From the NCBI GenBank assembly GCA_035516795.1, contig DATIZX010000076.1:1145-65144 (forward strand): a stretch of DNA of 64,000 bases, in the 5' to 3' direction. The DNA is from Verrucomicrobiia bacterium (lineage in GTDB: Bacteria > Verrucomicrobiota > Verrucomicrobiia > Palsa-1439). The first letter of the stretch is position 1; each line of letters starts with the position of its first letter. Made by a program: the position numbers and the translations under genes. This document shows positions 31,405-53,439 of the stretch, in pieces. A model generated the notes under the pieces. That model worked only from the letters and a program-made list of their open reading frames with translations, did no database searches and was not told the DNA's origin.

Positions 31405-32292
31405 CTAGAACTGCAAATCCCGCCACGATTTGATGTTCGGGTCTATCAATTCCATTTCACCGGCGGCGGGCCCCCCGAAATGAAGAAAGAAACTGTTGAG
31501 ATAGGTTGCCGTCAGACACGTTTGCTTCATCGTGGTGAAGGACGGCAGGTCCAGAACCGTCGCCAGCTTGCGTTTGAGTCTCGCGCGGAAGCTGTGGTTC
31601 GCTCGCGGTTTGATCAGAAACGGATAGTGCAGGAACAAGACTGCGGGCCACATAACATTAAAACGCGGGTCAATCCACTGGACGGAATCAGACTTGACCA
31701 ACTCGTAGGAGAGGGGACGCATCTCCATTTGCCATTCTCGCCCGCCTTTTTCTTCGTAATTGGAGTATGTGCGTTCGAGAAGGGAACGATGATGGCGGGG
31801 CGATAGCACCAACACGCCCGTATTCACAACTTCGTCAACGCCCGCGGAAAAGCCATACGTGGTATAGTACTCGGGCGCCGTATAGTTTCTGATCGCCTTG
31901 CCTTCGAAGAACTCGTAGATCCGATCATGAATCGCTTCGCGGTAGTGATGCCATTCTCGCGAATACGGATATTCTTCAACGGCCCCCACCTTCTCCAATG
32001 GTACGCCAGAATCAATCGCCGGAGCAGCGTGATTGTTGATCAGGATGTCTGAATCGATCCACACGATTCGCTCGTAACGCTGGGCAAAATCCTGGCTGAG
32101 AATCAGACATTTTTGCCACGCCGGCGATCGCTTGCGAGCACGCTCCGAATTGTCGAGGGGCTGCTCGATGCAAATGAGATCGAAGCCGTGTCGAGAAGCA
32201 TAGGCTCGCCAGTTGGATTCGCACCTGCGCTTCCAGTGTTGCTGATATGGTTCACCCATCGCCAAGGTGACGATCGCTTTGGAAGAGTTCAT
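31405..32292 (-). CDS. Putative nucleotide-diphospho-sugar transferase (GT-A, DxD motif), paralog
   Basis: Has an IVWIDSDILIN block. About 50% identical to the gene at 30481..31374. Confidence 0.45.
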   Translation of the reverse strand: MNSSKAIVTLAMGEPYQQHWKRRCESNWRAYASRHGFDLICIEQPLDNSERARKRSPAWQKCLILSQDFAQRYERIVWIDSDILINNHAAPAIDSGVPLEKVGAVEEYPYSREWHHYREAIHDRIYEFFEGKAIRNYTAPEYYTTYGFSAGVDEVVNTGVLVLSPRHHRSLLERTYSNYEEKGGREWQMEMRPLSYELVKSDSVQWIDPRFNVMWPAVLFLHYPFLIKPRANHSFRARLKRKLATVLDLPSFTTMKQTCLTATYLNSFFLHFGGPAAGEMELIDPNIKSWRDLQF

Positions 32293-32307: not shown

Positions 32308-33021
32308 CTATGCTTTTTGCATGGGACGAATGTCGATTTCCGTGATTTCGGCGGTGCGTGGCAGGCAGAGCGCATGCAGCACTGTCGCGGCAACATCCGC
32401 CGGCTGCAACAACCGCTCCGGTCGGTATTCTTTGCCTTCTGCTTGGTGAAGAGCAGCTTGCATGGGGGTTGCCGTCCGACCGACAAAAACACTCAGCACC
32501 CGAACTCCATCGACGTTCACTTCCTGGCGCAAACTATCGGCCATCGCCTTCAGGGCTGCTTTGGTTGCCGCATATTGGCTGATCAACGCCGCAGGCGTCA
32601 GGCGCGCGACGCTGGAATTGATGAAAACAATCTGACCATGCCGTTGACGCAGACCGGGCAAGAGCGCCTGCGTCAGTACGAATGGCGCGCGGACGTTGAC
32701 GCGGTACTGCCGGTCAAGGTTGGCCGGAGATGCGGTGGTAGTGCTTTCCCTCACAAACACGCCCGCACTGTGGACCAGAATATCCGCCCCTCCGAATTCC
32801 TTTTGGATGGCACTGGCGGCATCGAGAATCTGACGTTCCACGTCCAAATCAACGGTAAACCGGGCAGAATGAGGGGCCGAAACGTGAACTCGTTCCACGT
32901 GACGGCCGAGCAAGCACAGCGTTGCCCCTTCGGCGCCGAGTGCCAGCGCGATGGCTTTGCCAATGCCGCTGCTGGCACCAGTGACGACCGCAATCTGGTC
33001 CGTGAGTGGACCACGCATCAT
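32308..33021 (-). CDS. SDR-family oxidoreductase
   Basis: Reads VTGASSGIGKAIAL...YxxxK. Confidence 0.8.
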   Translation of the reverse strand: MMRGPLTDQIAVVTGASSGIGKAIALALGAEGATLCLLGRHVERVHVSAPHSARFTVDLDVERQILDAASAIQKEFGGADILVHSAGVFVRESTTTASPANLDRQYRVNVRAPFVLTQALLPGLRQRHGQIVFINSSVARLTPAALISQYAATKAALKAMADSLRQEVNVDGVRVLSVFVGRTATPMQAALHQAEGKEYRPERLLQPADVAATVLHALCLPRTAEITEIDIRPMQKA

Positions 33022-34304
33022 TCAAGTTCCTTCAACAGTGAGTGATCGAGCAACGCGTCGGCCGCTTTGCGAATCAGAGCAAATTCCATTTCCGAACGCT
33101 CGGCGATATCGAGCAGGAAATGTTTGCCATCGGAGAGGTTCAGTACCCAGAGCATGGCCAGTTCAAAATTCCGTGAACCAGTTTGGCCGCCGACGTTTTG
33201 ATAAAGCCCGCGCCGGCCCAGTTGGGGTTCGCATTTCGGATTGAGATTCACGCAGGTTCGGTTGCCTTCCAATACATCGAGTACCGCGAGGCATTTCTGG
33301 AAGGAATCGGCGAGGCTCGCCGGTTTCACGAATTCCAGGTTGTCCGCCGACGTGTGATACTCGGGGTAACGACCGTTCGGGGTGCGCATGAAGCAACCGA
33401 CCGGGAGATCGAAACCCGGCGAGCAATACTGGCGCTCATCGTACCCGTAGGGAGAGAAATTTTGGATCTCAAATTGTTGGCCGGAATGCTTCAGAACGTG
33501 CGCGACAGCCCGGTCAATCTCAGCATTGCCGCGCCGGCTCTTCTTATAGGTCGATGGGCCTGCGTCGCCGACGCAAGTGATTACCAACCCGTGCTTGATC
33601 TTGGCGGCGTTCGATTCGTTGCGGCTGAGCCAGGTAATGGAGCCGATGGTGCCCGGAATGAAGAGAAATCTGTACGAATACCGCCGAGTCACAGCACCAA
33701 GGTGCTTTGCCAGAAAGGTCGTCAATGCGATGCCGGACAAATTATCATTGGCGAGCGAAGGATGACAGGTGTGACAAGAGAGCAGAACCTCGTCGCAGCT
33801 GTGACCGGGCAGGTAAAGCTCTCCATACGTGAGATGGCCGTCCTGTAATGTCGAATCGATCGAAACTTCATATTCGTCATCCGGCAGGGAAAGCAATTGG
33901 CTGTGACTCAAACAAAAGCCCCAGCGCTCTGCATAGTAGGACGTGCGATAAGGAATCCAGTCCGGGTGCTCTGGAAGAGAATAAAGATGCGGTTTCAATT
34001 CGGGCAGACGCATCCTCGCCTTGACTGGAATGCTGTATTGGAGCACGTGCAGGTTTGACTTTTGGAAATCGATGACCCGCTCGCCTTTGCTGTTTTTGAT
34101 GTAGGCATCGCGGATATTCCATTCCTTCGGCACGATCCAGTCGAACACCCGCGTTCCGCTCGGGACCTCCTGCACGTCCAGGGAAACATGACGCTTCAAT
34201 GCTTTCAGCGTCTCGCGGAAACCAGTGCCGGTAATGCTCCGGCAGAGAGGGTACAACTCCCCGATCAGACGGTGCATCTCGTGACCAGTATGTTCGGCGG
34301 TCAT
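33018..34304 (-). CDS. Aminopeptidase-like domain protein (DUF4910/DUF2172-like, M28-like metal site)
   Basis: CHTCHPSLANDNLSGIA resembles the M28/M20 metal-binding block. This family is typically found in sugar-modification clusters. Confidence 0.45.
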   Translation of the reverse strand: MTAEHTGHEMHRLIGELYPLCRSITGTGFRETLKALKRHVSLDVQEVPSGTRVFDWIVPKEWNIRDAYIKNSKGERVIDFQKSNLHVLQYSIPVKARMRLPELKPHLYSLPEHPDWIPYRTSYYAERWGFCLSHSQLLSLPDDEYEVSIDSTLQDGHLTYGELYLPGHSCDEVLLSCHTCHPSLANDNLSGIALTTFLAKHLGAVTRRYSYRFLFIPGTIGSITWLSRNESNAAKIKHGLVITCVGDAGPSTYKKSRRGNAEIDRAVAHVLKHSGQQFEIQNFSPYGYDERQYCSPGFDLPVGCFMRTPNGRYPEYHTSADNLEFVKPASLADSFQKCLAVLDVLEGNRTCVNLNPKCEPQLGRRGLYQNVGGQTGSRNFELAMLWVLNLSDGKHFLLDIAERSEMEFALIRKAADALLDHSLLKELE

Positions 34305-34831
34305 CCTTTGAAGTACGGGTAATTATCGTCGCGGTCGGTGATCACGGTCACCTCACCGGGCCAGCGGACCCGGAACGCGGGGTCATTCCAGCGTACACCG
34401 GCCGCATGGGGGGGAGCGTAATAAGCCGACATTTGGTAGAAAATTTCGGTGGTGTCTTCGAGAGTCAGGAAACCGTGCGCGCAGCCCGGGGGAATCACCA
34501 TCATGCGATGATTGGCGGCTGACAAGGTATCACCTACCCATTGTTTGAACGTTGGAGAATCAGGCCGCAGGTCGATCGCCACATCGTAAAGAGAACCCAT
34601 CGTGCAACGGACAATCTTGGTTTCTGCGTGCGGTGGTTTCTGGTAATGCATGCCGCGCAGGGTGCCCTTGCGTTTGTTGAACGAAATATTGCATTGCACC
34701 AGGCGCGAGTCGATTCCCTGCTCTTCGAATTCAGTCTGGCACCACGCGCGGGCAAAGAAACCACGCGCATCGGGAATCAGTTCGGGGTCGAGTACAAATA
34801 CGCCCTGGATCTTTGTCTTTGTGAAAAGCAT
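34301..34831 (-). CDS. NDP-4-dehydro-6-deoxyhexose 3,5-epimerase-like cupin (RmlC family)
   Basis: Reads GVFVLDPELIPDARGFFARAW...KGTLRGMHYQ...MMVIPPGCAHGF. Confidence 0.8.
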   Translation of the reverse strand: MLFTKTKIQGVFVLDPELIPDARGFFARAWCQTEFEEQGIDSRLVQCNISFNKRKGTLRGMHYQKPPHAETKIVRCTMGSLYDVAIDLRPDSPTFKQWVGDTLSAANHRMMVIPPGCAHGFLTLEDTTEIFYQMSAYYAPPHAAGVRWNDPAFRVRWPGEVTVITDRDDNYPYFKG

Positions 34832-34837
34832 GTGTTT

Positions 34838-35494
34838 CTATCCGATGAGCACCTTGGGACAATAAAACGCTTCCGCATACTTGCTGGGGGAATTGGATTC
34901 GAGTCCGCGCAAGCGGAGCAGCGCCAGAAACGTGTCGGCGTCGAACCACTGCTTATTCTTCTGTGTTTTGAACGTCTCGCAGATGTAATGAACTTTGCGT
35001 TCGGCCAGGGATTTCTCCACATGGACGTAGGCATTGGGGGTCCCCATGTCGCCATCATATTTTGGGATTTCGTATTCGAGAATCAGATGGTTGCGAAACG
35101 CATTCCACGTCAATTCCGCAATCAGCCGGTGGTCTTGGTGCAGGTCGCGCCGGTGATGGGTAAAGATGATGTCCGGAGAGATCTGCTGGCTCAATTGCTG
35201 GACGAATTTTTTGATCCGATCGCCCGCGAACGGAAAATAACTGTCGCGGAATTTCCTGATGACAAGACGTTTCTGCCGGGCATTCCGCAGAAACAACTGC
35301 GCGCCTCTCCGCGCTTCCCGGGTTCTTGCAAGGTTCGCGCTCAAAACGATCCAATGAACGCAAAGGTTGGGATCCAACTCAGTTAGCTTCAGCAACGTGC
35401 CGCCGCAGCCGATTTCGATGTCATCGGCGTGGGCGCCGAGACACAATACCGTAAGCGGTGAGCCACTCTTGTGATTGAAACTTAGCGTGAGCAT
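34838..35494 (-). CDS. PIG-L/LmbE-family deacetylase
   Basis: Reads LCLGAHADDIEIGCGGTL...HHRRDLHQDH. Confidence 0.75.
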   Translation of the reverse strand: MLTLSFNHKSGSPLTVLCLGAHADDIEIGCGGTLLKLTELDPNLCVHWIVLSANLARTREARRGAQLFLRNARQKRLVIRKFRDSYFPFAGDRIKKFVQQLSQQISPDIIFTHHRRDLHQDHRLIAELTWNAFRNHLILEYEIPKYDGDMGTPNAYVHVEKSLAERKVHYICETFKTQKNKQWFDADTFLALLRLRGLESNSPSKYAEAFYCPKVLIG

Positions 35495-35515
35495 CAGAAC
35501 CGGGAGGACACTATC

Positions 35516-36316
35516 TCAATTGGCTTCGGCCTCATGCAAGGGATTCTTCCAAACTTCCCACGGGGCATTGCCGCGGGCGTGGAGTTCCTCGAGTTGCTGT
35601 TTGTCCTTGAAAGTGTCCATCGCGGCCCAGAATCCATCGTAACGAAAGGCGGCCAGTTGATGGTCCTGAATAAGCCGCTGGAATGGACCCTGCACGAGTT
35701 CTTCACCGTTCTGGACATAGTCGAAGATTTCTTTACGAAACACGTAGAAGCCGCCATTGATGCGGATATTGGACCGATGAATGTCACGGATATCGGTGAC
35801 CGCTCCTTGCTCGCTGAGCGAAACGAAATGATAGGTCAGGTTCGGCTTGACGCACAAGAAGGTAGCGATGGTGTTCTGCTGCTTGGCGAAATCGAGCAGG
35901 TCGGGCAGAGGCATGTTGGTCAGGCCATCGCTGTAGTTGGTCAGGAATACGTCTTCGCCATTGAGATAACGCTGCACGAGTTTCAACCGCTGCCCGACCG
36001 TGCAATACATGCCGGTATCCACGAATGTGATTTTCCAGTCTCGCATATCGCTACTCAGCAGTTCGACATTGCGCCCGCCATCACTGAGCACGAAATCGTT
36101 GAGCAGACATTCATTGTAATTGAGAAAGTGCTGCTTGATCAGGTCAGCCTTGTAACCGAGGCACAGGATAAACTCGTTATGACCGTAATAGGCATAATAC
36201 TTCATGACATGCCAGAGGATGGGCATGTTGCCAATCTTCACCAGGGGCTTGGGCAGGCTTTCCTCGGTATCTTTCAACCGCATGCCCAGCCCTCCACAAA
36301 ACAAAACAACCTTCAT
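35516..36316 (-). CDS. Glucose-1-phosphate cytidylyltransferase-like nucleotidyltransferase (RfbF paralog)
   Basis: Reads MKVVLFCGGLGMRLKDTEESLPKPLVKIGNMPILWHVM. The start is internal; the ORF track's 5' extension overlaps the upstream gene. Confidence 0.75.
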   Translation of the reverse strand: MKVVLFCGGLGMRLKDTEESLPKPLVKIGNMPILWHVMKYYAYYGHNEFILCLGYKADLIKQHFLNYNECLLNDFVLSDGGRNVELLSSDMRDWKITFVDTGMYCTVGQRLKLVQRYLNGEDVFLTNYSDGLTNMPLPDLLDFAKQQNTIATFLCVKPNLTYHFVSLSEQGAVTDIRDIHRSNIRINGGFYVFRKEIFDYVQNGEELVQGPFQRLIQDHQLAAFRYDGFWAAMDTFKDKQQLEELHARGNAPWEVWKNPLHEAEAN

Positions 36317-36345
36317 AAGCCGGCTCCTTTTTTCTTTCCTTGACT

Positions 36346-37614
36346 CTAAGAAATATCCAGCGGCGAAAACACCTGCACCTCGGGTATGGGCACCACGAAT
36401 TGTCCACCCCAATTCTTGATAAATGCCATTTGCTGCATGATCTCGTCTTTGATGTTCCAAGGTAGGATCAATACAAAATCAGGTTTCGTTTCGCGAATCT
36501 TGTCCGGCGCATAAACCGGAATGTGGGTGCCGGGCAGAAACAACCCTTGTTTGTGTGGACTCCGGTCTACCGTGTAATCGAGGAAATCCGTTCTCGTGCC
36601 GCAGTAGTTGAGCAGCGTGTTGCCCTTGGCCGGGGCGCCGTAACCGGCAATGGTTTTGCCATTGCGTTTGGCAGCAATCAGAAAATCCAGCAGCTTGCGC
36701 TTGGTTTCCTTTACGCGTTCCGTGAACGAGAAATACGTCTCAAGTTGATCGAAACCAGCGGTCAATTCGCGCTGACGGAGTTCTTGCACGCGCGAAGTCA
36801 CCGGATGCGACCCCTCCGCTGTATGCCGAACGTAAATTCGCAAGGACCCGCCGTGCGTGGGCAATTCCTCCACGTCGAACACGGTCATCGCGTGCGCTCC
36901 GAATATCTTCCCGACCACGAGCAGGGACAAGTATTGGTAATGCTCGTGGTAAATGGTGTCGAACTGGTTTTCCGCCATTAACCGCATCAGGTGCGGGAAT
37001 TCCATTGTCAGCACGCCGGTCGGCCTGAGAAGAATCCGCAAACCCTCGACAAAATCGTTAATATCAGGCACATGGGCCAGCACGTTGTTGCCCACGAGGA
37101 GATCAGCCTGCGAATGGTCGCGCACGATTTCACGCGCCGTTTGTTCGCCGAGGAATTTCATCACGGTAGGGATGCCCTTTTTCTCAGCAGCGGCAGCAGT
37201 GTTGGCAGTGGGCTCGATTCCCAGAACGGGAATCCCCTTCGCCAGAAAATACTGCAGCAAATATCCATCGTTGCATGCAACCTCGATCACCTGATGTTGT
37301 GGGCCCAGCGCGAGGCGCCCGGTAATCATTTCGACGTATTTTTTTGCATGCTCCAGCCAACTATCGGAGAAAGACGAGAAATACGCATAGTTGTCGCTGA
37401 AGATGTGTCGGGCGCTGATGCAATCAGCCACCTGTACCAAAAAGCAACTGGCGCAGACCTTCACATGCAGCGGATAGAATGGCTCCATCTCGCCCAATTG
37501 CGCCGCATTCAGGAAATCATTTGAAATAGGCGATGCACCCAAATCAATGAACGTGTGCGCTAGCGGTGCACCACAAAAGCGACAGGATGGAGAGGTCAAG
37601 ATGAATGCCTCCAA
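36346..37614 (-). CDS. NDP-hexose C-methyltransferase (TylCIII/Methyltransf_13+14-like)
   Basis: Has an N-terminal Zn-ribbon (CRFCGAPL...CASC), a class I methyltransferase core and a C-terminal C-methyltransferase domain. The start is probably TTG at about 37614 or 37599, overlapping the upstream stop. The ORF track's Arg-rich N-terminal extension is rejected. Confidence 0.72.
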   Translation of the reverse strand: MEAFILTSPSCRFCGAPLAHTFIDLGASPISNDFLNAAQLGEMEPFYPLHVKVCASCFLVQVADCISARHIFSDNYAYFSSFSDSWLEHAKKYVEMITGRLALGPQHQVIEVACNDGYLLQYFLAKGIPVLGIEPTANTAAAAEKKGIPTVMKFLGEQTAREIVRDHSQADLLVGNNVLAHVPDINDFVEGLRILLRPTGVLTMEFPHLMRLMAENQFDTIYHEHYQYLSLLVVGKIFGAHAMTVFDVEELPTHGGSLRIYVRHTAEGSHPVTSRVQELRQRELTAGFDQLETYFSFTERVKETKRKLLDFLIAAKRNGKTIAGYGAPAKGNTLLNYCGTRTDFLDYTVDRSPHKQGLFLPGTHIPVYAPDKIRETKPDFVLILPWNIKDEIMQQMAFIKNWGGQFVVPIPEVQVFSPLDIS

Positions 37615-38627
37615 TAGAAACGCTCGTCGATTTGCGCGGACTGCAGGAGGTGTTCGAGTTGTTTCAGCCGAGTGAACGCTCGGAACTCGAACACCTCGCG
37701 TGTCAGATTGATTTTCTCGAACACAGCCCGCAGTTCGCGCGCGCCGGTGTGCGCGTCGCGCTGGCAACGAAAACCGGGGAGACGGGAGGTGATTTTGTCG
37801 AAATTGACGCGATAACTCCGGTTATCCGCGCCCCGCGCGCCGAAAGTCAGCGCGCAGCCGGGGAAAGCTTCCGCGACAATTTCGGCGATCTCCCGCACCC
37901 GATAGTTCTGGCCGTTATCGCCAACGTTAAACACCTGATTGTGTATGACCTCGCGCGGTGCCTGGAGAGTGCAGGCTATCGCGTCACAGATGTCCAGGAC
38001 GTGAACGAGAGGGCGCCACGGTGTGCCGTCACTGATCATTTTGATTTCCCTGGTTGTCCAGGCAAGACCGGCCAGGTTGTTGAGAACGATGTCGAAGCGC
38101 ATGCGCGGCGACGCACCAAACGCCGTGGCATTGCGCAAGAAAGTCGGCGAAAAACTGTTGTCCGCCAACTCCCCGATATCGTGTTCCACGAGCACCTTGC
38201 ATTGGGCATAAGCGGTCTGGGGATTGGGCGGCGATTCTTCCGTGACATTCTCGGACGAGGCGACCCCATAAACGCTGCAGGAAGATGTGTAAACGAAGCG
38301 GGTGACCCCGACGTCTTTGGCTTTCCGGGCCAGGGCCACGCTGCCGACGTGGTTGATTTCGAATGTGAGTTCTGGATTGTGCTGTCCCAGCGGGTCGTTG
38401 GAGAGTTCTGCCAAGTGCACGACTGCATCGTATCCGCGCAGATCGTCATGAGTGATTCGCCGGATGTCTTTCTTGACGTGGTGTGCGACAGATGGGATTC
38501 CGTCATAAAGGAGACCATCGAGGTAAAAGCCGGTGTCCAAGCCTGTCACCTTGTGGCCCCGCTCACGAAGCATTGCCTCCAGCAACACCCCGATGTAGCC
38601 GTCGGTTCCGGTGACGAGTAGTTTCAT
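37596..38627 (-). CDS. NAD-dependent epimerase/dehydratase (extended SDR; CDP-sugar pathway enzyme)
   Basis: Reads MKLLVTGTDGYIG...YAQCK. Its exact activity (4,6-dehydratase, 2-epimerase or reductase) cannot be determined from the sequence alone. Confidence 0.78.
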   Translation of the reverse strand: MKLLVTGTDGYIGVLLEAMLRERGHKVTGLDTGFYLDGLLYDGIPSVAHHVKKDIRRITHDDLRGYDAVVHLAELSNDPLGQHNPELTFEINHVGSVALARKAKDVGVTRFVYTSSCSVYGVASSENVTEESPPNPQTAYAQCKVLVEHDIGELADNSFSPTFLRNATAFGASPRMRFDIVLNNLAGLAWTTREIKMISDGTPWRPLVHVLDICDAIACTLQAPREVIHNQVFNVGDNGQNYRVREIAEIVAEAFPGCALTFGARGADNRSYRVNFDKITSRLPGFRCQRDAHTGARELRAVFEKINLTREVFEFRAFTRLKQLEHLLQSAQIDERFYWRHSS

Positions 38628-38654: not shown

Positions 38655-39428
38655 TCACTTCCAGATTTTCCACGGAACATTTCCAGAGTGCCACATGTCT
38701 TCCAGAAGATTCTTTTCCTTCAAGGTATCCATGCACGACCAGAATCCGGTGTGCCGGTACCCCATGAGTTGGCCATCGCGGGCGAGGTTTTCGACGGGCG
38801 CATGTTCCCAAACCGTGTCATCGCCTTCGATGTAATCCAGGCATTTGCGGTGGAGCACAAAATAACCTCCATTGATCCAGCCTTCGCTGGCTTCCGATTT
38901 TTCGTAGAACTCCCGCACGCGCTCGCCCTCGAATCCGATACGGCCGAATCGGGCTGGTGAGTGCACGGTAGTCACCGTCGCCAGCTTGCCATGCTCGTGA
39001 TGAAACGCGGTGAGCGCCGTAAGGTCGAGGTCGGCCACGCCGTCCCCATACGTGAACATGAACGTTTCATCTTTGGCGATCCATTTCGCGAGGCGTTTCA
39101 AACGGCCGCCGGTGTTGGTATTTAATCCCGTATCGATCAGGTGCACTTTCCATCGCGGTTGATTGCCATCGTGAATTTTGACCTTGCCTCCGGCGAGATC
39201 GACAGTCATGTCGTTGTTGAACGCGTAAAAATTCAGGAAATAATCTTTGATGATTTCCCCCCGATAACCGAGCGCAATGATGAACTCGGTGATGTTGTGG
39301 GCGGCGAAGATGTTCATGATGTGCCAGAGGATGGGACGACCCCCAATCTCGACCATGGGTTTGGGACGCAACATCGTCTCTTCGGATAACCTCGAACCGA
39401 ATCCGCCTGCCAGAATAATCGCTTTCAT
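38655..39428 (-). CDS. rfbF: Glucose-1-phosphate cytidylyltransferase
   Basis: 257 aa. Reads MKAIILAGGFGSRLSEETMLRPKPMVEIGGRPILWHIMN...FWSCMDTLKEK, a canonical RfbF. Confidence 0.85.
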   Translation of the reverse strand: MKAIILAGGFGSRLSEETMLRPKPMVEIGGRPILWHIMNIFAAHNITEFIIALGYRGEIIKDYFLNFYAFNNDMTVDLAGGKVKIHDGNQPRWKVHLIDTGLNTNTGGRLKRLAKWIAKDETFMFTYGDGVADLDLTALTAFHHEHGKLATVTTVHSPARFGRIGFEGERVREFYEKSEASEGWINGGYFVLHRKCLDYIEGDDTVWEHAPVENLARDGQLMGYRHTGFWSCMDTLKEKNLLEDMWHSGNVPWKIWK

Positions 39429-40741
39429 TGCCTCATCTCACTCAGTTTATACACTCCTGATTCGTAAACCTCGACCCCGCAGTCATTGCGAATTTGCATG
39501 TACCAGCTTCCGATTTGTGCCGCCGCCTGCACCCGGGCTTCGGCTGTTCGCGATGGATCGTAGCGCTCAAAGTATTCAACAATGCTCTCCACGGCATGTA
39601 CTTGGTCCAGATGTTGCAAGGAAAGAATTGGGACTGTTTGGTTACCCGTGTAACGATCGAAATCGGCGTACTTGTAATCGTAATAAGGACCAGAGGTCAC
39701 CGGCACCGCGGGGCAGCCCCCCATCATGGAAAAGAGGCAGCCATGAAAGGACATGGAGATGGTGCCGTACGCTTGTTCCGATAAATCAATCAGGTCATAC
39801 TCGTCTTTCAATCGCGCCACTTCGACGTTCAGTCGTCCCCCATTCGCATTCTGCAGATGGGACAAGATTTGCAGGTCATCGCAAAATGCAGGATCACTCA
39901 TCCCAAACAGCTTGAAAGGCAGGGCCAACCTTTGGTCGAGCGCTGCCAAGAAGGCGGCAAAGGCTTTCATCTCTGAGGCAGTGATGGCCCGCACGAAGTT
40001 GGTGCTCCGAAAATTGATCAAGATAAATGACCGGGCACGTTGGTACCGATGCTTCACCGGATACAAACGTGTGCAGGCGAACACCTCGTCGAACAGGAGT
40101 TGGTGACCCGCAAATCCAAATTCTTCCACACACCGGGCGTTGCGACAGCGCACGTCTGTGAACAACGGTCGAATGAAGAAGCGGAAAAACCACCGTTGCG
40201 CCAATGTTTGCCGACCGTACTGTTGCGGACCGCAGAACACGTCTTTGTGATAAAAACGGCAGAGCGCAAAATGCCAGAATAAGGGACAGGCGTTCGTCCA
40301 AAAAAACTGGGCCGACCACGCGCTCCCGCCATAGAAATAGCACGCCTCACAGCGCTCAATGTCGGCAGCGATGCCTTTGAGCAGCGAACGGTTCTCTCGC
40401 GTCGACAAGAGATGGAAGGGCAGATACAGAAACGCAGCCAACGCTCTGAGTGGCTCTGGGAACCGCAGGTGTCGCGCTTTGTTAAATAGTCTGGCATAAA
40501 CATATAACAGGCCGGGTCGACAACTCAATTGGACTTTTGGCGCCGCTGCTGTTTCTGCCCGTTCGCATTGTGTCTTGTTGAATTGATCGTCGAACCATCC
40601 GCACTGTTCTTCTGAATGGATCAGACACTCCACGCCTTCCGAATCGCCCAGGCCGGCAATGACGCTGCGGAGAATGCATTCGTCTCCGAGAGAGGCCATG
40701 CCATTATACGACCCGAGCACTAGAAACAATTTCGTTTGCAC
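39425..40741 (-). CDS. Polysaccharide pyruvyl transferase family protein
   Basis: A GTG start at 40741 gives MQTKLFLVLGSYNGMASLGDECIL, matching the pyruvyl-transferase N-terminal GxYGxxNxGDxxIL motif. The ORF track's longer 5' part overlaps the upstream gene. Confidence 0.6.
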   Translation of the reverse strand: MQTKLFLVLGSYNGMASLGDECILRSVIAGLGDSEGVECLIHSEEQCGWFDDQFNKTQCERAETAAAPKVQLSCRPGLLYVYARLFNKARHLRFPEPLRALAAFLYLPFHLLSTRENRSLLKGIAADIERCEACYFYGGSAWSAQFFWTNACPLFWHFALCRFYHKDVFCGPQQYGRQTLAQRWFFRFFIRPLFTDVRCRNARCVEEFGFAGHQLLFDEVFACTRLYPVKHRYQRARSFILINFRSTNFVRAITASEMKAFAAFLAALDQRLALPFKLFGMSDPAFCDDLQILSHLQNANGGRLNVEVARLKDEYDLIDLSEQAYGTISMSFHGCLFSMMGGCPAVPVTSGPYYDYKYADFDRYTGNQTVPILSLQHLDQVHAVESIVEYFERYDPSRTAEARVQAAAQIGSWYMQIRNDCGVEVYESGVYKLSEMRQ

Positions 40742-40743
40742 AT

Positions 40744-42051
40744 TCAGTTGCGGACGGCTCTCATGAAACGCAGTATGGGTGGTGGTACCATCGGCCGAAG
40801 CAGGGCTTTCATTTGCCTGCGCCGCTGTTGCCAGCGAGCTTGCTGAAGACAACGGGCAAGGAAGCGTTCGACGTCGGATTTGTTCTGCTCAACGGCCGTC
40901 TTAAGCAACGTCTGATACGTATCCTGCCGATACTCACCATCAAGAAGTTCATCAAAAACGGTACAGCCAGGCTGTGCCAAATTGGACAGAAACCTTTCTT
41001 CGTTGAACTCCACTGTTTCGAAGGGTACGCCATAAAGCCGGTACAAAACATAGTAGCGAAAGCATTTCTCGCAGTTCAGGCACCAGCGTTCGCCGCGATT
41101 GGCATAGCAAGAATATTGATAATGGCCGATGGAGGGATGGCGAGTCCATAAATTTTCAAACACAGTCAGTTTGTTCATTTCGCCGAGCCAGGGTTGATAA
41201 TCGAATAGCGGAGCGAAGATTGCGGAGAGTGGTCCTGTGATCTCCGGGGTAAAGCAATGGAAGCTGAGATCCTCTCCAAATTGTTGGATTTCGTTCCCCT
41301 GACACACCGTGCTCAACTCTTCGTCGACCACGAGGGGCGCGACCAGCGCCAGCAATGATGGCGTGAACGAAACGGCGTTGGCGAACAGCGTACCGGTCAC
41401 GATTCGTTCCTGAAGCGCCGGCTGCAATTGGGCCAACACGCCGTATACGTTGCTATGGATATGCCGGAGCTGAAGCCCCAATTGGCTTGCGATACGGGAA
41501 TCTTGCTCAAGTTTCGTTGGATTTCGTACAGGATCGCTCCCGATCCAGCCAGGGCCAAGAAAACTGATTAAGATCGGCTTGATGCCCTTGGCCAACAATT
41601 CACCAAGTACCAACAGACTTTCAGCCCCGCCGCCAAAAAAGAGACCGGTTTTACGCTGCGCGCTTTCCAATGAATGACATGGCGTATCTGCACCGGGCAA
41701 CATCACCGGCGGTTCCATGTGGATTTCAACAGCTCTGCCAAAATGCCGCGCCGTTATGTTCTTCACGAAATGTGGCCATCCGTTCAGGATTTGACGTAAG
41801 GCGTCAACTTCGTTGCCGCCGGCCTGCGGCTCGATCAAGGACGACTCTATCCGAAACCGGCTTTCAGTGAAACTCAGGGGCAGTGAGGCTGGCAGGGCCA
41901 GATACAAGCTTGTCACACCCGCTGCTCGCTTGAGTGTGGACGGATACTCGACCCAAAATGAGTTTGGATAACCCGGGAAAGGATTGGGTTCCCAACGACA
42001 TTCCAGTCGCCGAGAGGAGATCTCCTCGATGGAAATGACGTACTCGTTCAT
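40744..42051 (-). CDS. PP-loop superfamily (QueC/ExsB-like) protein with degenerate P-loop
   Basis: LFFGGGAESLLVLG sits where SGGxDS is expected. The C-terminal SCYANRGERWCLNCEKCFRYYVLYRL resembles the QueC-type Zn-binding Cys cluster. Confidence 0.4.
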   Translation of the reverse strand: MNEYVISIEEISSRRLECRWEPNPFPGYPNSFWVEYPSTLKRAAGVTSLYLALPASLPLSFTESRFRIESSLIEPQAGGNEVDALRQILNGWPHFVKNITARHFGRAVEIHMEPPVMLPGADTPCHSLESAQRKTGLFFGGGAESLLVLGELLAKGIKPILISFLGPGWIGSDPVRNPTKLEQDSRIASQLGLQLRHIHSNVYGVLAQLQPALQERIVTGTLFANAVSFTPSLLALVAPLVVDEELSTVCQGNEIQQFGEDLSFHCFTPEITGPLSAIFAPLFDYQPWLGEMNKLTVFENLWTRHPSIGHYQYSCYANRGERWCLNCEKCFRYYVLYRLYGVPFETVEFNEERFLSNLAQPGCTVFDELLDGEYRQDTYQTLLKTAVEQNKSDVERFLARCLQQARWQQRRRQMKALLRPMVPPPILRFMRAVRN

Positions 42052-42063
42052 GTAACCGGCGCT

Positions 42064-43863
42064 CTATTCATGATCCTTGGCCCATAACAGCAAACCCAGG
42101 AGAAGTTTGGGCCCGGAGGCATCGGCCAGGCCGTCATGGAAGGACACTGTCGCCTGCGGAGGCGGCAGCAATTCATTCAGCACTTCGCTGTGGAACAGAT
42201 GCTGAACGCACGACCGATATGGTTCACCTTCCTGGCGAACTGCCCGCCACGAGGCGCCATTGAAATCGTAGGTCCGGCAATAATAGCGCCGATCGACCGG
42301 GTGTACTTTTCGTCGGAGCGCTTCCCACGCCCGGCCATAGAGGTGCCAGGCAAGCATCCAGCGGAACCGCGGGTGAATCGGCAGCGCATAGTCCGCATTC
42401 CGATCCAGTGGAAGAGCGGCCAAGTGGGGAAACCGGCAATGCAGCAACTCCAACTGTAGTCGTCGTTCTTCCAAGGTGACGACGGGCATCCCGCTCATGA
42501 CTTCCAGGACTTTCTGATCGACATAAGGCTGCACCGGCCAGGCGCCAAAACAAAGCGGCCACAGCGCGCTTCCAACATGGAATCGCTGCCGGTGTTGCAG
42601 ATGGGAGCACCAAGCCCGGTGCGATTCTTGATCGGCAGATCTCAGGTAAGCCGTTTCAAGCCCTGCAATCGTTTCGTCCACCAGGTCGCCAAACACTTCT
42701 CGCAGGAGCAGCTTCTTTAAAACTTTGGGTCGAATCGCCCACTCGTTGTGATGGGCAAAGTAAGTCCGGAAAGAAAAGTTGCCTTGGGAGGGTGAATAAG
42801 CTCCCTCGAGATGAGCGCCGCCCAAAATTACGTTCCCGAGATAACCGGTAACCACTCGCGGGTTGACTGCCCCCAAGGCCGGCGGAGTGCCCCAGTTCAT
42901 GATCGTATTAAAGCCGTTGGCCAGATGCTCCCAACGAGCCTGACACTCCGCGTACCGGGGATAAGAACTGCCCGCGACATGAACGGGATGATGAGGAAAC
43001 CCCAAAGTCCGCGCGACTCGCGAAGCACACCTGAAATCAATGTCGCTGGGCAACCCAAACGTCACCGCGACTGTATCGCGACGCCCTTGGCGTTTCAAAA
43101 ATCCCCCCAGCATCCGTGAATCCAATCCGCCCGAGAGCAAGAGACTGTGGGATTGAGTTGCGCGCGCATGGCGCGTCACCGCCTCGTCAAGTGCGCCATC
43201 GATGAGACGCACCTGGGCTTCCAGCGGCAGATCGTAATATCTTGCAGAGAACGGGATTCGATACTGCAACTTTTCTTGTGGCAATGCACCGGGACTCCAT
43301 GCAAGGCAATGCCCCGGGGCCAACCGCCGCACGTTACGCCATAGGGTTTGACCATTGATCAGGTGCATGGTGAGCAAGATGCCGACCAATCCAGCCGCAT
43401 TCAGCTCCATGTGGAAGCAAGGATGATATCGAAAGAGTTCCGGGCTTGAACCTACCAGCAAAACGTCCGGCCACCCGCAGTAATAGACGGGAAACAATCC
43501 GAGGATATCCGCACTGACAATAACCCCGTTATCTTGAAGGTGAACCACACCGGCATGAAAACCGTCATAAGGCTCCGGCAAAGTTGCCGGCCAGACACTC
43601 CAATGATCCCGCATCTGCCGAGCGCTCACAGGCTGGATAGCCGACTTGGGAATCGCGTCTCCCCAAAGCACCGCGGCCCCGGTTTCATCAGCGCTTTGAC
43701 TGACCGGCGCTTGCGGGTGGGCGGCCCAGAGGGCACAGAAATCGCCGCGAGCGCAACGATCGGTCTTTAGCCCTTTCACCGGCGGCAACAACGGTTCGAC
43801 CGTTTGGATAAACCGGTTGCGGCGCGTGGCGTCAGCGTCCACAATGATGAGAAAACTGGCCAT
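42064..43863 (-). CDS. Asparagine-synthetase-like protein lacking the N-terminal nucleophile Cys
   Basis: 599 aa. Has the PP-loop LLLSGGLDSRMLGG and an AsnB-like N-domain, but begins MASFLIIVD with no Cys2. Confidence 0.65.
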   Translation of the reverse strand: MASFLIIVDADATRRNRFIQTVEPLLPPVKGLKTDRCARGDFCALWAAHPQAPVSQSADETGAAVLWGDAIPKSAIQPVSARQMRDHWSVWPATLPEPYDGFHAGVVHLQDNGVIVSADILGLFPVYYCGWPDVLLVGSSPELFRYHPCFHMELNAAGLVGILLTMHLINGQTLWRNVRRLAPGHCLAWSPGALPQEKLQYRIPFSARYYDLPLEAQVRLIDGALDEAVTRHARATQSHSLLLSGGLDSRMLGGFLKRQGRRDTVAVTFGLPSDIDFRCASRVARTLGFPHHPVHVAGSSYPRYAECQARWEHLANGFNTIMNWGTPPALGAVNPRVVTGYLGNVILGGAHLEGAYSPSQGNFSFRTYFAHHNEWAIRPKVLKKLLLREVFGDLVDETIAGLETAYLRSADQESHRAWCSHLQHRQRFHVGSALWPLCFGAWPVQPYVDQKVLEVMSGMPVVTLEERRLQLELLHCRFPHLAALPLDRNADYALPIHPRFRWMLAWHLYGRAWEALRRKVHPVDRRYYCRTYDFNGASWRAVRQEGEPYRSCVQHLFHSEVLNELLPPPQATVSFHDGLADASGPKLLLGLLLWAKDHE

Positions 43864-45144
43864 CTAGTTGTTCTTGGGTTCCTTGACCAAATCCCAGGAA
43901 TGTTCGACCAATGCCGTGGAGTATTCGATTGACGGCATGAACGCCGTCGCAAAAAAAACACTCGACTCAACGTCGAACACACAGGCGGTAGGCACCCAAT
44001 CCAATTGGTTGATGTGATCCTCAGCCAGCACGGCGATTTTGTACTGTCCCTGCGGCAAAGGCAATTTGGGAATCCGGCAGATCACCTGACCGCGACCGTG
44101 CGCGAGCCGGAACCGCTTGCCTTCGGCGTCCATGTTGCAGTGTGTGACGGCAATGCCGATGTGGTTGAAAATGGTGAGCATGAATTGCACCTGTGCGAGT
44201 TCCTCTTGTGTCTCAAATTCCAGCACGATGTCGATCGGATGGCCCGACACTGGCAGAGCGGTGCGCCCACCGGTTTCATTGCGAAGATATGCCGCCACGA
44301 ACCGCAGACGACCATCGCCGCTACGCCGCTGCGCATACCGCAAATTGGTCGACTCCTGCCGCACGATGCTGGCAAGATATTCCTGGGTAGCTTGGCGAGC
44401 CGTCCCGCGGCTGATCAGCCGTCCCTGATCCAGGATAATCGCGGTAGGACAAAGCTCCATAATGGCGCCCATGTTATGGCTCACAAACAGTACTGTCCGG
44501 CCTTGCCTGGCAACGTCATCCATCTTGCCGAGGCATTTCTTTTGAAACGCGGCATCGCCCACAGCCAGGACTTCGTCCACAAGGAGGATTTCGCTTTCCA
44601 GATGGGCCGCTACCGCAAACGCCAATCGCATGTACATGCCACTCGAATAATGCTTTACCGGCGTGTCGAGGAATTTCTCCAACTCAGCGAACGCAACCAT
44701 TTCGTCGAATTTCCGATTAATCTCCTGGCGGCGCATCCCGAGAATTGCGCCGTTTAGGTAAATGTTCTCGCGTCCCGTCAATTCCGGATGAAACCCGGTG
44801 CCGACCTCGAGCAAACTGCCTACGCGTCCCTTGAGACAAACACGTCCGGTTGTCGGCTCGGTGATCCGCGCAAGAACTTTCAGCAGCGTGCTTTTGCCGG
44901 CACCGTTGCGGCCGATGATGCCCACCACATCGCCGCGCTTTACCTCAAACGAAACGTCCCGCAAGGCCCAGATTTCGTTGGGCAGCTCATCGTTCGCGTG
45001 GCCGTTCCAAGCGGCAGCAACGCGCCTAAATGGCGTCGTCACCGCTTGCATCAGGGAATCGCGCAAGGTGACGTAACGTTCCTTTCGCGTACCGAGGCGA
45101 AACCGTTTGGTGAGATTCTCGACGCGTATGGCCGTTTGGCTCAT
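43864..45144 (-). CDS. wzt: O-polysaccharide ABC exporter ATP-binding protein with C-terminal glycan-binding domain (second copy)
   Basis: Reads MSQTAIRVENLTKRF...GRNGAGKST...YSSGMYMRL...LLVDEVLAVGD, plus a C-terminal domain of about 190 aa. Start at the internal Met (ATG at 45142-45144). Confidence 0.85.
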   Translation of the reverse strand: MSQTAIRVENLTKRFRLGTRKERYVTLRDSLMQAVTTPFRRVAAAWNGHANDELPNEIWALRDVSFEVKRGDVVGIIGRNGAGKSTLLKVLARITEPTTGRVCLKGRVGSLLEVGTGFHPELTGRENIYLNGAILGMRRQEINRKFDEMVAFAELEKFLDTPVKHYSSGMYMRLAFAVAAHLESEILLVDEVLAVGDAAFQKKCLGKMDDVARQGRTVLFVSHNMGAIMELCPTAIILDQGRLISRGTARQATQEYLASIVRQESTNLRYAQRRSGDGRLRFVAAYLRNETGGRTALPVSGHPIDIVLEFETQEELAQVQFMLTIFNHIGIAVTHCNMDAEGKRFRLAHGRGQVICRIPKLPLPQGQYKIAVLAEDHINQLDWVPTACVFDVESSVFFATAFMPSIEYSTALVEHSWDLVKEPKNN

Positions 45145-45148
45145 CCGA

Positions 45149-46016
45149 TCAGACCGTATCTGCGAAAATCTTCTCCATGCGACGGAAATAAAAGGCGCCG
45201 ATAACAAAGACGAGAACAGCCGCAAGCCCGGACACCCAAAGGATTGCTCCGGGCGCCGGTGCGCCAAGCAACGCCCAGCGAAATCCTTCGACCACGCCCG
45301 CCATCGGATTGAGGCCGTAGAGCGAACGCCATGGCTCGGGCAACAAGCTGCTCGGATAGGCAATCGGCGTGCAGAAGAGCCAGGCTTGAATTAGAAAACT
45401 GACGGTGTGCCGTACATCACGATACCGCACGTTCATGGCTGACAGCCAAAATCCCACTCCCAGCGATGTAATGAACGCCAATAGGAAAAACGCAGGGAGA
45501 AGAATGAGATGGATTGTCGGCCAAACGTGAAAGTACGCCATCATTCCAATCAACACGATGAACGCCAGCAGGAAATCCACGGCGCCTGAAAGGACGGCGG
45601 AAATCGGCACAATCAGCCGCGGAAAATAAACTTTCTTGATCAGATTGGCATTGCCCACGAGGCTTTCCGCCGCTCCAACAAGGCCGTTGGCGAAAAAATT
45701 CCAAGGGACCAACGCCGCATACGCAAAAATCGGATAGGGGAGACCGTCGGATGGAATTTTTGCCAGCCGTCCAAAAAACAAGCTGAAAACGACCATGGTG
45801 AACACCGGCTGTAGAATGGCCCACGCAGCGCCCAGCGCAGTCTGCTTGTAGCGAACCTTGATGTCGCGCCAGATCAGAAAGTAAAGCAACTCGCGAAATT
45901 CCCAAATCTCCTGCAACCGCAGGGATACCCACCCGCGCGACGGCTCGATTACAAGATCGAAATCGGAATCAGGCGGATTCTGGATGACGCTGTTCAAGAC
46001 TTTCACTTGGGCAGAC
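45149..46016 (-). CDS. wzm: ABC-2 type polysaccharide exporter permease (second copy)
   Basis: A GTG start at 46016 gives MKVLNSVIQNPPDSDFDLVIEPSRGWVSLRLQEIWEFRELLYFLIWRDIKVRYKQT. The ORF track's 480-aa version has an Arg-rich non-coding-like N-terminus. Confidence 0.8.
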
Positions 46017-51282: not shown

Positions 51283-53439
51283 ATGCGTTGGCGGAACCTT
51301 TCAACTTTGTCGGGTGGATTGCTCATTTGTCTTGTGGCGGCGGGTCAGATTGCGCATCCCACGAACCTTGCAGCAGTGGATCTTCCCTATAACAGCACCT
51401 GTCCCATCGTTTATGACAACGACTCGCATGATGACATGTACACCGACGAATATCTGCTGGCTCTGGCCAGCGCTGGTGAAATCACACTGAAAGGCATGAT
51501 CACCACCTCGGGTGGCTGGCGGGAGCCGCTATTCCCCGATCCGGTTTTTGTATTTCAATGGCCCTTGGCAGGTCGGAGCGAAATCGTCGGCAAGGCCTGG
51601 CGCAGTGGCTTCACCAATCTTCCAACGCCAGTGGCCGGTTCCGGCAGCGCACTGCTCAAACCCTCCTCGGGGCTTATCGAAGATACTTTGCCCGACGACA
51701 CTCCCGGCGCCCGCCTGATCGTCAATGAAGCGAAGAACGCGAGCCCCAGTCAGCCGCTCGTAGTCGTGATGGGCGGTCCGCCAACCACTTTGGCCAGTGC
51801 CTATCTGCTCGATCCGTCAATTGCCGACAACGTGGTGTTGGCTTGGCTTGGCGGAGGTCCGGGCGAAAACGATATGCAAAACTACAACGATCTCGTGGAC
51901 CGTTGGGCCACATACATTGTCGTTCATCGACTGCGCGTTGTGCTCTTCGGACCGGTGTTTAATCAGGCCCCATTGGTGCCGAAATCGCAGTTGACGGAGT
52001 TGCCGAACACCGAGTTGCGTCCTTGGATGATCGACAAGGAATTGCCCAACGCGAATCTGCCGAACGGATTCGATCACGATGCACCACCAGCCATCAGTCT
52101 GCTACGCCCGGATTATGTCTTTGCCGCAAAGCCCAAATCCTTCAGCAGCGTCGATGCGAGCGGCGTCATTACCCTTCAAGACGACCCGACCGGTAATATC
52201 CTGATGGTCACCCAAGCCGACCAGAACATTGGAACCGAGGAGTGGTGGCGCGCGTTGGAAAACCCGGCGGCGTACGGCTACGACCCGTTGCCTCCCACGC
52301 TCACGCCGTTTGCTGGAACGCCGGCAGTAATACCGGGGGGCATCGAAGCAGAAGATTTTGATTACGGTGGCCCTGAAGTTGCCTACCACGATCTCAATGT
52401 AAAGACGATGGACCAAAATGCGAAGCGAAACATCACAACCTTTCGTGTAACCGACAACGTGGACTTCGATTACTGTTCGGATTTCAATGGCGGTTACGCG
52501 ATTGCCCGGGCTCAGAAGGGGGAATGGCTCAACTACAGCGTCAACGTCACGACAGCCGGTTTGTACACGCTTCACGCTCGCGTCTCCTCATCCGGCAATG
52601 GCGGGATATTTCACGTCGCCTTCGATAGCGTCGATAAAACCGGGCCAATCAAGATTCCCAACACTCACTATTTGCAGAACTGGCGGACCATATCCACGGC
52701 ACCTGTGGCTTTGGATTCAGGGCAACATGTCATGAGTATCATCATCGATGCCAACGGCGCTCACGGCGTGGCCGGTGACATCAACTACTTGGATTTCGAG
52801 TTGGGAGATTCTGTGGCTTCCAACCAGTCTGCTGTGCTTGGAACCTGGGACATTTCCATGAGGGGATCGAAGGACGGCGTGGGCTTGGTCACATTCAACG
52901 AGGACTCCACGTTGACCGGCTACGGAATCCGCACGGATTGTTCCGGCGTCTTCCAACTCTCCGGATCGTGGCAGAAGGGCCGGAGGGGAATTCTGGTCAC
53001 TGCTATTCGGGATTCCGACTGTGGATCCGTTCAGACACAACTGAGACTCACGGTGCAAAGCAACGGGCGTCTTCTTGCCGCGGCGGACGGCAGTAGCAGG
53101 TCTCGCTGGCAAGGTGACAGGGCACCGACCGAACCCATTCTAGATGGATACTGGTTTGGCACAATTCGAATGCCAGGCACGCACACCACTTCGTCTCAAG
53201 TATACAGGCTGATTCCCGAGGGAGATCTGCCTGGCGTATTCGACATCAGCGATGGGAACACGGATGCGCCTCTGGGCGAAGGCATCGTAACTTCGGCGCA
53301 TTTGGTTGAAGCCTATTTGACCATCAACGGGAATCCCGCTGCTTTTATTGGCCGATTCAACTCTGTAAAACGAATCTTGAAGCTGAAAACAGCAAACAGG
53401 GCGGCAAGAAGAATCATCATCAAGGCCAGCCAGCAGTAA
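51283..53439 (+). CDS. Secreted nucleoside-hydrolase (IUNH)-like domain protein with C-terminal CBM6-like carbohydrate-binding module
   Basis: Signal peptide, then IVYDNDSHDDMYTDEYLLALASAGEITLKGMITTSGG (compare IUNH DxDxxxDD...LALA...ITTxxGN), VVVMGGPPTTLA and LAWLGGG blocks. The CBM6-like region includes EAEDFDYGG...GEWLNYSVNVTTAGLYTLHARVSS. Confidence 0.6.
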   Translation: MRWRNLSTLSGGLLICLVAAGQIAHPTNLAAVDLPYNSTCPIVYDNDSHDDMYTDEYLLALASAGEITLKGMITTSGGWREPLFPDPVFVFQWPLAGRSEIVGKAWRSGFTNLPTPVAGSGSALLKPSSGLIEDTLPDDTPGARLIVNEAKNASPSQPLVVVMGGPPTTLASAYLLDPSIADNVVLAWLGGGPGENDMQNYNDLVDRWATYIVVHRLRVVLFGPVFNQAPLVPKSQLTELPNTELRPWMIDKELPNANLPNGFDHDAPPAISLLRPDYVFAAKPKSFSSVDASGVITLQDDPTGNILMVTQADQNIGTEEWWRALENPAAYGYDPLPPTLTPFAGTPAVIPGGIEAEDFDYGGPEVAYHDLNVKTMDQNAKRNITTFRVTDNVDFDYCSDFNGGYAIARAQKGEWLNYSVNVTTAGLYTLHARVSSSGNGGIFHVAFDSVDKTGPIKIPNTHYLQNWRTISTAPVALDSGQHVMSIIIDANGAHGVAGDINYLDFELGDSVASNQSAVLGTWDISMRGSKDGVGLVTFNEDSTLTGYGIRTDCSGVFQLSGSWQKGRRGILVTAIRDSDCGSVQTQLRLTVQSNGRLLAAADGSSRSRWQGDRAPTEPILDGYWFGTIRMPGTHTTSSQVYRLIPEGDLPGVFDISDGNTDAPLGEGIVTSAHLVEAYLTINGNPAAFIGRFNSVKRILKLKTANRAARRIIIKASQQ
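51380..52420 (+). repeat. Paralogous DNA repeat (copy 1) shared with 53560..54600
   Basis: About 80% nucleotide identity in aligned stretches (e.g. cgtttatgacaacgactcgcatgatgacatgtacaccgacgaatatctgctggc versus ggtctatgataacgactcccacgatgatatgtacacggacgagtatctgctcgc). Confidence 0.5.

Follow-up and report, generated by a model that had tools for sequence, protein, structure and literature searches.

A conserved AsnB-like and QueC-like enzyme pair as a candidate glycan-tailoring module linked to pyruvylation and ABC-dependent export

What is the function of two adjoining genes in a bacterial glycan operon, one encoding an asparagine synthetase (AsnB)-like protein of 599 amino acids (aa) and the other a QueC-like protein of 435 aa? 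The question is raised by a stretch of 64,000 nucleotides (nt) from a Verrucomicrobiia bacterium (assembly GCA_035516795.1, contig DATIZX010000076.1, forward strand, positions 1,145-65,144), referred to here as the window. An earlier note on this DNA had taken the pair to be non-housekeeping, part of the glycan operon and linked to the adjacent pyruvyl-transferase-like gene, a view now borne out by a recurrent gene order and by QueC-like proteins fused to PS_pyruv_trans domains. In our reading, to which a probability of about one half is given, the AsnB-like protein, the QueC-like protein and the pyruvyl transferase build or derivatise a carboxylate-bearing cap, probably a pyruvate ketal, on a glycan exported by an ATP-binding cassette (ABC) transporter. 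Both open reading frames (ORFs) of the pair were found on the minus strand where that note had placed them, in the following setting (sampled loci are given by L number):

45149-46000, minus strand: Wzm, the ABC-2 permease of the glycan exporter; start approximate (GTG near 46000); the L001 and L003 orthologues, in the same position, carry PF01061 ABC2_membrane
43864-45144, minus strand: Wzt, ABC ATPase with a C-terminal carbohydrate-binding domain, Wzt_C (PF00005 and PF14524); likely start MSQTAIR at 45144
42064-43863, minus strand: AsnB-like protein, 599 aa, with an N-terminal-nucleophile (Ntn)-like N-domain lacking Cys2 and a PP-loop synthetase domain
43108-43134, minus strand: PP-loop SGGLDSRML of the AsnB-like protein, residues 244-252, with invariant positions in 19 family members
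40744-42051, minus strand: QueC-fold protein, 435 aa; alpha/beta domain at the N-terminus, Rossmann core of PP-loop type whose loop is a variant one, zinc ribbon, and basic helix at the C-terminus
41617-41637, minus strand: variant PP-loop FGGGAES of the QueC-like protein, residues 139-145
41062-41109, minus strand: zinc motif C315-x8-C324-xx-C327-xx-C330 of the QueC-like protein, invariant within and across clades
39425-40741, minus strand: polysaccharide pyruvyl-transferase-like protein; likely GTG start at 40741, 2 nt past the QueC-like stop

The four genes from wzt onwards are translationally coupled, with successive gaps of 0 nt (wzt/AsnB-like), 12 nt (AsnB-like/QueC-like) and 2 nt (QueC-like/pyruvyl-transferase-like). 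Gene coupling elsewhere was sampled on about 85 loci. A QueC-like gene lay in the fetched flank of 42 of the 46 AsnB-like loci having at least 2.5 kb on both flanks, and in 28 it was no more than 300 nt away. The AsnB-like loci belong to Cyanobacteria, Chloroflexi, Planctomycetes, Acidobacteria, Gemmatimonadetes, Verrucomicrobia, Deltaproteobacteria and Bathyarchaeia. The order Wzm-Wzt-AsnB-like-QueC-like-PS_pyruv_trans is common to the window, to further Verrucomicrobia (L001-L003, L045) and to Planctomycetes (L013, L026, L086), with rearranged gene sets in Chloroflexi (L006, L087) and Gemmatimonadetes (L085). A GGGSES-type homologue of only 27% identity (L091) stands in the order Wzm-Wzt(Wzt_C)-FucT-AsnB-like-QueC-like, and in about 20 loci an offline jackhmmer search found Wzm as a neighbour of the module. 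Judged from this gene content, the AsnB-like and QueC-like proteins are a widespread cross-phylum module, not peculiar to the operon of the window. The wider picture was missed when the pair was treated as a local feature of its operon: the module crosses phyla, most QueC-like partners carry the loop SGGVDS, and a specific clade of Wzt binding domains goes with it.

The connection with pyruvylation goes beyond adjacency. In two proteins (P0154, P0156) the GGGxES domain of the QueC-like family is fused to PS_pyruv_trans, and other members are fused to GT2, FkbM methyltransferase or GNAT domains. Moreover, P0150 (L093, 9001-12650), of 810 aa, carries a GGGTES-type and an SGGVDS-type QueC-like domain in tandem, with a pyruvyl transferase gene directly after it, in a cluster without an AsnB-like gene; since both loop types occur in this one protein, they would not be redundant. 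As far as comparison of genes allows, a glycan-tailoring role and a link to pyruvylation are well supported. No description of the module was found in the literature, which was searched for QueC-like proteins with polysaccharide and for asparagine synthase with pyruvyl transferase and Wzt.

A second line of evidence comes from the transporter. The Wzt of the window, hereafter Wzt1, matches PF00005 (1.7e-22) and PF14524 Wzt_C (59.8 bits against a cutoff of 30.4). It was taken as the reference for a comparison in which the last 175 aa, encoded at roughly 43867-44391, stood for the binding domain and the remainder for the nucleotide-binding part. Against Wzt proteins of Planctomycetes, a deltaproteobacterium and an unclassified bacterium whose genes lie no more than 124 nt upstream of an AsnB-like gene, the binding domain of Wzt1 is 50-58% and the remainder 55-60% identical, while against the second Wzt of the window the values are 23% and 64%. 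For the C-termini of Wzt proteins so placed in other phyla, a range of 50-69% identity to these 175 aa was also obtained. The two parts thus rank in opposite order, and for this reason the binding domain appears to have been co-inherited with the module beyond the transporter's own relatedness, as would be expected if it reads the module's product. A Wzt with a C-terminal carbohydrate-binding domain recognises a chemical cap at the non-reducing end, and the cap licenses export; methylation, (methyl-)phosphorylation and Kdo are the caps named (PMC9445017). In this context, the coupling of the module to one binding-domain clade points to a chain-end cap. The module also resembles the WbdD-type cap enzymes of ABC-dependent O-antigen pathways in that its genes directly follow a wzt with a carbohydrate-binding domain. 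Nevertheless, those pathways use a kinase/methyltransferase or a Kdo transferase in place of PP-loop enzymes and a pyruvyl transferase, and a cap role here would be by analogy.

The second Wzm/Wzt pair (25741-27857, minus strand) lies in the same glycan super-operon of about 49 kb on the minus strand, and its Wzt2 has a Wzt_C of its own (40.5 bits). It is followed by GT2 and GT4 genes and by an FkbM-type methyltransferase gene (17637-18500, minus strand), a plausible methyl-cap enzyme, so that one operon may export two separately capped glycans.

What chemistry could the pair perform? The AsnB-like protein begins with MASFLII and has no Cys2, and no upstream start supplying one is possible, because the wzt stop codon TAG (43866-43864) abuts the ATG (43863) in the same frame; the description of a 599-aa protein with an AsnB PP-loop but without the catalytic Cys therefore holds. 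All 19 aligned family members start with M-[AV]-[NS]-F and none has Cys2. The loop LSGGLDSRML lies at residues 243-252 (about 43108-43137), and L243, S244, G245, G246, D248, S249 and R250 are invariant in the same 19 members. The family itself is large (596 matches, with at least 333 matching stretches in species-representative genomes), and the protein is 46-55% identical across phyla. Pfam Asn_synthase covers only the PP-loop region (residues 222-299, E = 2.7e-11). The score against TIGR01536 is 60.9 bits for a cutoff of 267.1, and every NCBIfam AsnB-type model stays far below its cutoff. An ordinary AsnB is ruled out by the missing Cys2 and by this score, although the SGGxDS loop and the two-domain fold do match.

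The AlphaFold2 model of the AsnB-like protein (pLDDT 87.1) has the complete two-domain AsnB architecture. Foldseek matches it to the TsnB9 hydroxyamidotransferase (TM-score 0.67) and, each at E <= 1e-14, to the carbapenam synthetase CarA, to beta-lactam synthetase and to AsnB (1ct9 at 2e-15). In an alignment to the canonical AsnB paralogue of the window, the glutamine-binding positions are not conserved; the position of the AsnB catalytic Glu (Glu348, in the SGEGSDE motif) is Tyr, His or Asn in the family, and a 'GY' of the AsnB-like protein aligns with the TGYGSD motif of CarA. CarA and beta-lactam synthetase are comparable in their two-domain fold, intact SGGxDS loop, lack of an N-terminal Cys and replacement at the Glu348 position; TsnB9 is the closest solved structure and is not claimed to lack the Cys. 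The AsnB-like protein differs from all three, however, in its low identity to them (13-16%), in scoring below the curated cutoffs, in belonging to a large M-A-N-F family of its own, in its glycan operon and in its obligate QueC-fold neighbour. The canonical, Cys-containing AsnB that had been noted in the same operon is real: its ORF spans 7536-9473, with an MCGIAG start at 9425, and carries GATase_7 and a full Asn_synthase domain. Directly after it comes a NodU/CmcH-type carbamoyltransferase gene (5783-7534), both on the minus strand, which suggests further amide or carbamoyl decorations on the second glycan.

The QueC-like protein carries FGGGAES (residues 139-145, 41617-41637) and SCYANRGERWCLNCEKC (C315, C324, C327, C330; 41062-41109), and the spacing of its cysteines is identical to the zinc motif by which QueC is defined, C(x)8CxxCxxC (PMC13329287). 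Of the earlier description, the QueC-like Cys cluster and the loop sequence stand, but the term 'degenerate' does not, since GGGxES is invariant. In fact, the 27 homologues obtained by a word-indexed search, to which the invariance counts refer, all share G140-G141-G142-x-E144-S145, D173, N177, E254, K294, Q312-Y-S-C315 and R322-W-C324-x-x-C327-E-x-C330. An exhaustive profile search gave 353 representative clusters of the QueC-like superfamily, and motifs were listed for 172 proteins (the 27 homologues and 145 representatives); GGGxES occurs in roughly 80 of these, and more distant members have SGG[VK]DS. On these alignments, neither GGGxES nor the four-Cys motif is due to chance.

In cyanobacteria and most other phyla the neighbour of the AsnB-like gene encodes a protein of about 400 aa with the canonical SGGVDS loop and the same zinc ribbon. 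Identity between the two partner clades is only about 15%. The QueC-like protein of the window is retrieved at E = 6.9e-32 by a profile made from SGGVDS-type partners, with FSGGvDS aligned to FGGGAES, and F139, G141, G142, S145, G166, the four Cys, E328, K329 and R332 are invariant across both clades. By its conservation, GGGxES is a PP-loop variant, not a product of decay, and it marks out one clade of an uncurated superfamily in which SGGVDS is retained by the other members. A distant member of GGGVES type (P0175; L092, 4169-5245; zinc motif RWCGxCxKC) is found by itself, with GmrSD_N and HEPN genes as neighbours, and the role of its subclade may lie in defence and not with glycans.

The AlphaFold2 model of the QueC-like protein (pLDDT 88.9) has a QueC-like fold. 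Its best structural match is QatC (9y02_B; 395 aligned columns, nearly full length, TM-score 0.40), followed by YcfA, QueC (TMt 0.66-0.73; 3bl5 0.73) and Cap9. Sequence searches of the 435-aa protein against Pfam, NCBIfam, PADLOC and PDB returned only noise, with neither PF06508 nor TIGR00364, and among eight QueC-like relatives, SGGVDS types included, the sole NCBIfam match was a sub-threshold LarE on the L088 partner (E = 0.0066, 15.7 bits against a cutoff of 150). The QueC substrate motifs YxQxHxxE and VPxRN are absent, the corresponding stretches reading LGPGWIGSDP and QGNE. The protein shares with QueC the Rossmann PP-loop fold, the zinc-motif spacing and a conserved Lys ahead of the zinc ribbon. 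It is unlike QueC in its GGGxES loop, in the missing substrate motifs and family matches and in some 130 extra N-terminal and 90 extra C-terminal residues. Ordinary QueC, or preQ0 synthesis, is thus ruled out by the lack of a family match, by the absent substrate motifs and by GGGAES in place of SGGxDS, the zinc motif being the part that does match. With the AsnB-like score below the TIGR01536 cutoff and no QueC match for its partner, the profile check proposed earlier classed neither protein as the ordinary enzyme. In the model, the basic C-terminal helices may serve as a membrane tether.

In the established chemistry of both the AsnB and the QueC superfamilies, a carboxylate or carbonyl oxygen is adenylated and then attacked by ammonia or an amine. 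The AsnB-like enzyme would have to use free ammonia or an amine of its substrate, because its ATP loop is present and the glutaminase nucleophile is absent; in CarA and beta-lactam synthetase the amine used belongs to the substrate. The pair would form the core of a glycan-tailoring module that acts, with the pyruvyl-transferase-like enzyme, on a cytoplasmic lipid-linked glycan exported by Wzm/Wzt. Firstly, the pyruvyl transferase would add a carboxylate-bearing group, a pyruvate ketal, to the non-reducing terminal sugar. Secondly, the AsnB-like enzyme would adenylate a carboxylate and form an amide from it, with either free ammonia or an amine of the substrate. Thirdly, the zinc-binding QueC-fold enzyme would subject this group to a further activation or ligation, or would present the substrate. 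Finally, the end-group would act as a chain cap read by the carbohydrate-binding domain of Wzt. We infer the substrate, the amide chemistry, the order of the steps and the cap role from sequence and gene context, and the amide or amidino decoration favoured in the earlier note would likewise be putative. On the most economical reading, the carboxylate on the terminal sugar would come from the pyruvyl transferase and would then be derivatised by both PP-loop-type enzymes. The QueC fold normally performs two ATP-dependent steps, from acid to amide to nitrile, and Cap9 and QatC ligate an acid to a protein amine (PMC13329287; PMC13279940). A bolder version, which must be called speculative and improbable as it stands, divides this one-site chemistry of QueC between the AsnB-like and QueC-like enzymes: two successive ATP-dependent activations would take the terminal pyruvate-ketal carboxylate to a carboxamide and then to a nitrile or amidine, and the result would be a class of glycan cap not known before, with a phylogenetically widespread clade of Wzt binding domains as its dedicated reader.

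Several observations weigh against a pyruvate-ketal cap made by the three enzymes. Amidated pyruvate ketals were found neither in a review of pyruvylation nor in the literature searched. The pyruvyl-transferase-like protein of the window matches TIGR03609 CsaB (8.2e-08) and falls below the Pfam cutoff for PF04230 (23.4 bits against 25.3); the syntenic genes in L001, L003, L086 and L087 do carry PF04230. Most cyanobacterial loci consist of the pair alone, with no adjoining pyruvyl transferase or Wzm/Wzt, and in the Chloroflexi loci L006 and L087 the module is present and the Wzt C-terminus is unrelated. The P0156 fusion lies in a Wzx/Wzy cluster without an AsnB-like gene, and from this context a QueC-like/pyruvyl-transferase unit can act without the AsnB-like protein and outside ABC export. 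In QatC, moreover, the first Ser and the Asp of SGGxDS coordinate the beta- and gamma-phosphates of ATP, and the S156A/S161A mutant is dead (PMC13279940); the variant loop has neither residue, so that any ATP use by the 435-aa protein is putative.

Some cyanobacterial pairs adjoin sulfotransferase genes, or GT2 and PS_pyruv_trans genes. In the cultivable Allocoleopsis franciscana PCC 7113 (L004), the pair occupies positions 5,907,436-5,910,458 of CP003630. In Lyngbya aestuarii (L088, 10001-17261), two AsnB-like and SGGVDS-type QueC-like pairs stand in tandem, with sulfotransferase genes between and after them, an arrangement that hints at a tie to sulfated cyanobacterial polysaccharides and at paralogous specificities.

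The foremost alternative, doubtful as it is, arises from the variant loop of the QueC-like protein. The 435-aa GGGxES protein could be a non-catalytic pseudoenzyme, an adaptor that positions the pyruvyl transferase and the AsnB-like protein on the lipid-linked glycan, the AsnB-like protein alone carrying out the ATP-dependent chemistry. The two phosphate-binding residues have been lost while the sister clade keeps SGGVDS, and in the cases examined a canonical PP-loop enzyme accompanies the GGGxES protein, namely the AsnB-like protein here and the SGGVDS domain in P0150. An adaptor would also suit a family fused to transferases as different as pyruvyl, GT2, FkbM and GNAT, as well as an AsnB-like protein whose 46-55% identity holds whichever partner type it has, the partners themselves having diverged to about 15%. 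The basic C-terminal helix, too, would be compatible with tethering to the membrane. Nevertheless, GGGxES, D173, N177, E254, K294 and the zinc site are strictly invariant, as is typical of an active site and not of decay, and no canonical PP-loop enzyme is encoded on the 17.8-kb contig of P0156, in which GGGSES and a pyruvyl transferase are joined.

It is also conceivable, if unlikely, that the pair modifies some other carboxylate, either a uronic acid of the chain or an intermediate of the cytidine diphosphate (CDP)-sugar pathway suggested by neighbouring cytidylyltransferase, dehydratase and C-methyltransferase genes, the pyruvyl transferase being an independent decoration. The formation of uronamides by AsnB-type enzymes is established in O-antigens. 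The module adjoins genes for a glucose-1-phosphate cytidylyltransferase, an epimerase/dehydratase and a C-methyltransferase in the window, L001 and L003, and the cyanobacterial pairs without an adjoining pyruvyl transferase would fit as well. The CDP-sugar genes, however, are not conserved beside the module in Planctomycetota or Gemmatimonadota, whereas PS_pyruv_trans recurs in both and is found fused to QueC-like domains, and no uridine diphosphate (UDP)-sugar dehydrogenase, which would supply uronic acid, is present among the window ORFs scanned. A block at 33018-37767 (minus strand), shared with L001 and L003, encodes a sugar C-methyltransferase (Methyltransf_13/14), a nucleoside triphosphate (NTP) transferase, a PIG-L deacetylase and a DUF4910/DUF2172/HTH_47 M28-like protein, and looks like an uncharacterised pathway to a branched or amino CDP-sugar.

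For a PP-loop enzyme that tailors glycans, the closest parallel in function is offered by the WbpG/PseA-type N-acetyl-sugar amidotransferases (TIGR03573), which are encoded in glycan loci and convert a carbonyl to an amidine with ATP and ammonia. This family had been put forward earlier for comparison and gave no match to the pair at E <= 0.1, and no HisH/HisF family, which would be the ammonia-supplying partner, was found among the window ORFs scanned; a WbpG-type amidotransferase was therefore set aside.

Far less probable is that the QueC-like protein acts as QatC and Cap9 do, ligating a carboxylated small molecule, such as a 7-deazaguanine, to an amine of a protein, which could be the N-terminus of the AsnB-like protein at its conserved Ala2. 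The best full-length structural match is indeed QatC, with Cap9 also retrieved, and all three have N- and C-terminal extensions around the QueC core and a dedicated partner gene alongside. For QatC and Cap9, the site of modification is the N-terminus of a tightly associated partner, and the M-A-N-F start of the AsnB-like family is nearly invariant. However, the TM-score of 0.40 goes with an identity of only 13-14%, the QueC substrate motifs are missing, and the PP-loop is a variant one. Furthermore, the N-terminus of the AsnB-like protein forms, in the model, the first buried beta-strand of the Ntn fold and not a flexible Gly tail as in QatB or CdnD. A defence-system QatC is ruled out by the context of glycan synthesis throughout, in place of defence, and by the absence of PADLOC matches.

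Lastly, Cys-less AsnB homologues include lasso cyclases, and the pair had been suggested alternatively to belong to a system for ribosomally synthesised and post-translationally modified peptides (RiPPs), as a cyclase, of lasso or other macrolactam type, that acts on a small precursor peptide; this is effectively refuted, since the matches to NF033561 (43 bits against a cutoff of 300) and NF033535 (13.8 against 525) lie far below threshold, a precursor gene would not fit into the gaps of 0, 12 and 2 nt, no B-protease or RiPP recognition element family occurs in any annotated neighbourhood and the context is consistently one of glycan synthesis.

Other features of the locus deserve mention. A NusG-family paralogue (PF02357; 46102-46674, minus strand) lies between a Wzc-like tyrosine kinase/co-polymerase gene and wzm, occupies that place in L001 and L003 as well and is likely to serve this very long transcript as an antiterminator specific to the operon. 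Five sizeable ORFs of the glycan operon, in 29481-32292, 24753-25733 and 12803-14386 (all minus strand), match no Pfam family at E <= 1e-4. Adjoining the glycan locus, two neighbouring paralogues (51283-55328, plus strand) combine a sub-threshold IU_nuc_hydro-like (nucleoside hydrolase) region with CBM6/CBM35 modules, an unusual architecture.

As regards the wider meaning of a module that would tailor exported glycans, ABC-transporter-dependent glycans are exported only once a chemical cap has been added. A conserved GGGxES variant of the PP-loop is documented here, and the QueC fold, whose reuse for modifying proteins in phage defence was shown recently, would be extended into polysaccharide biosynthesis. 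A conserved pair of uncurated enzymes, which a pyruvyl transferase often makes into a trio, present in many phyla and tied to one clade of Wzt binding domains, is thus a candidate for a new cap or side-group chemistry.

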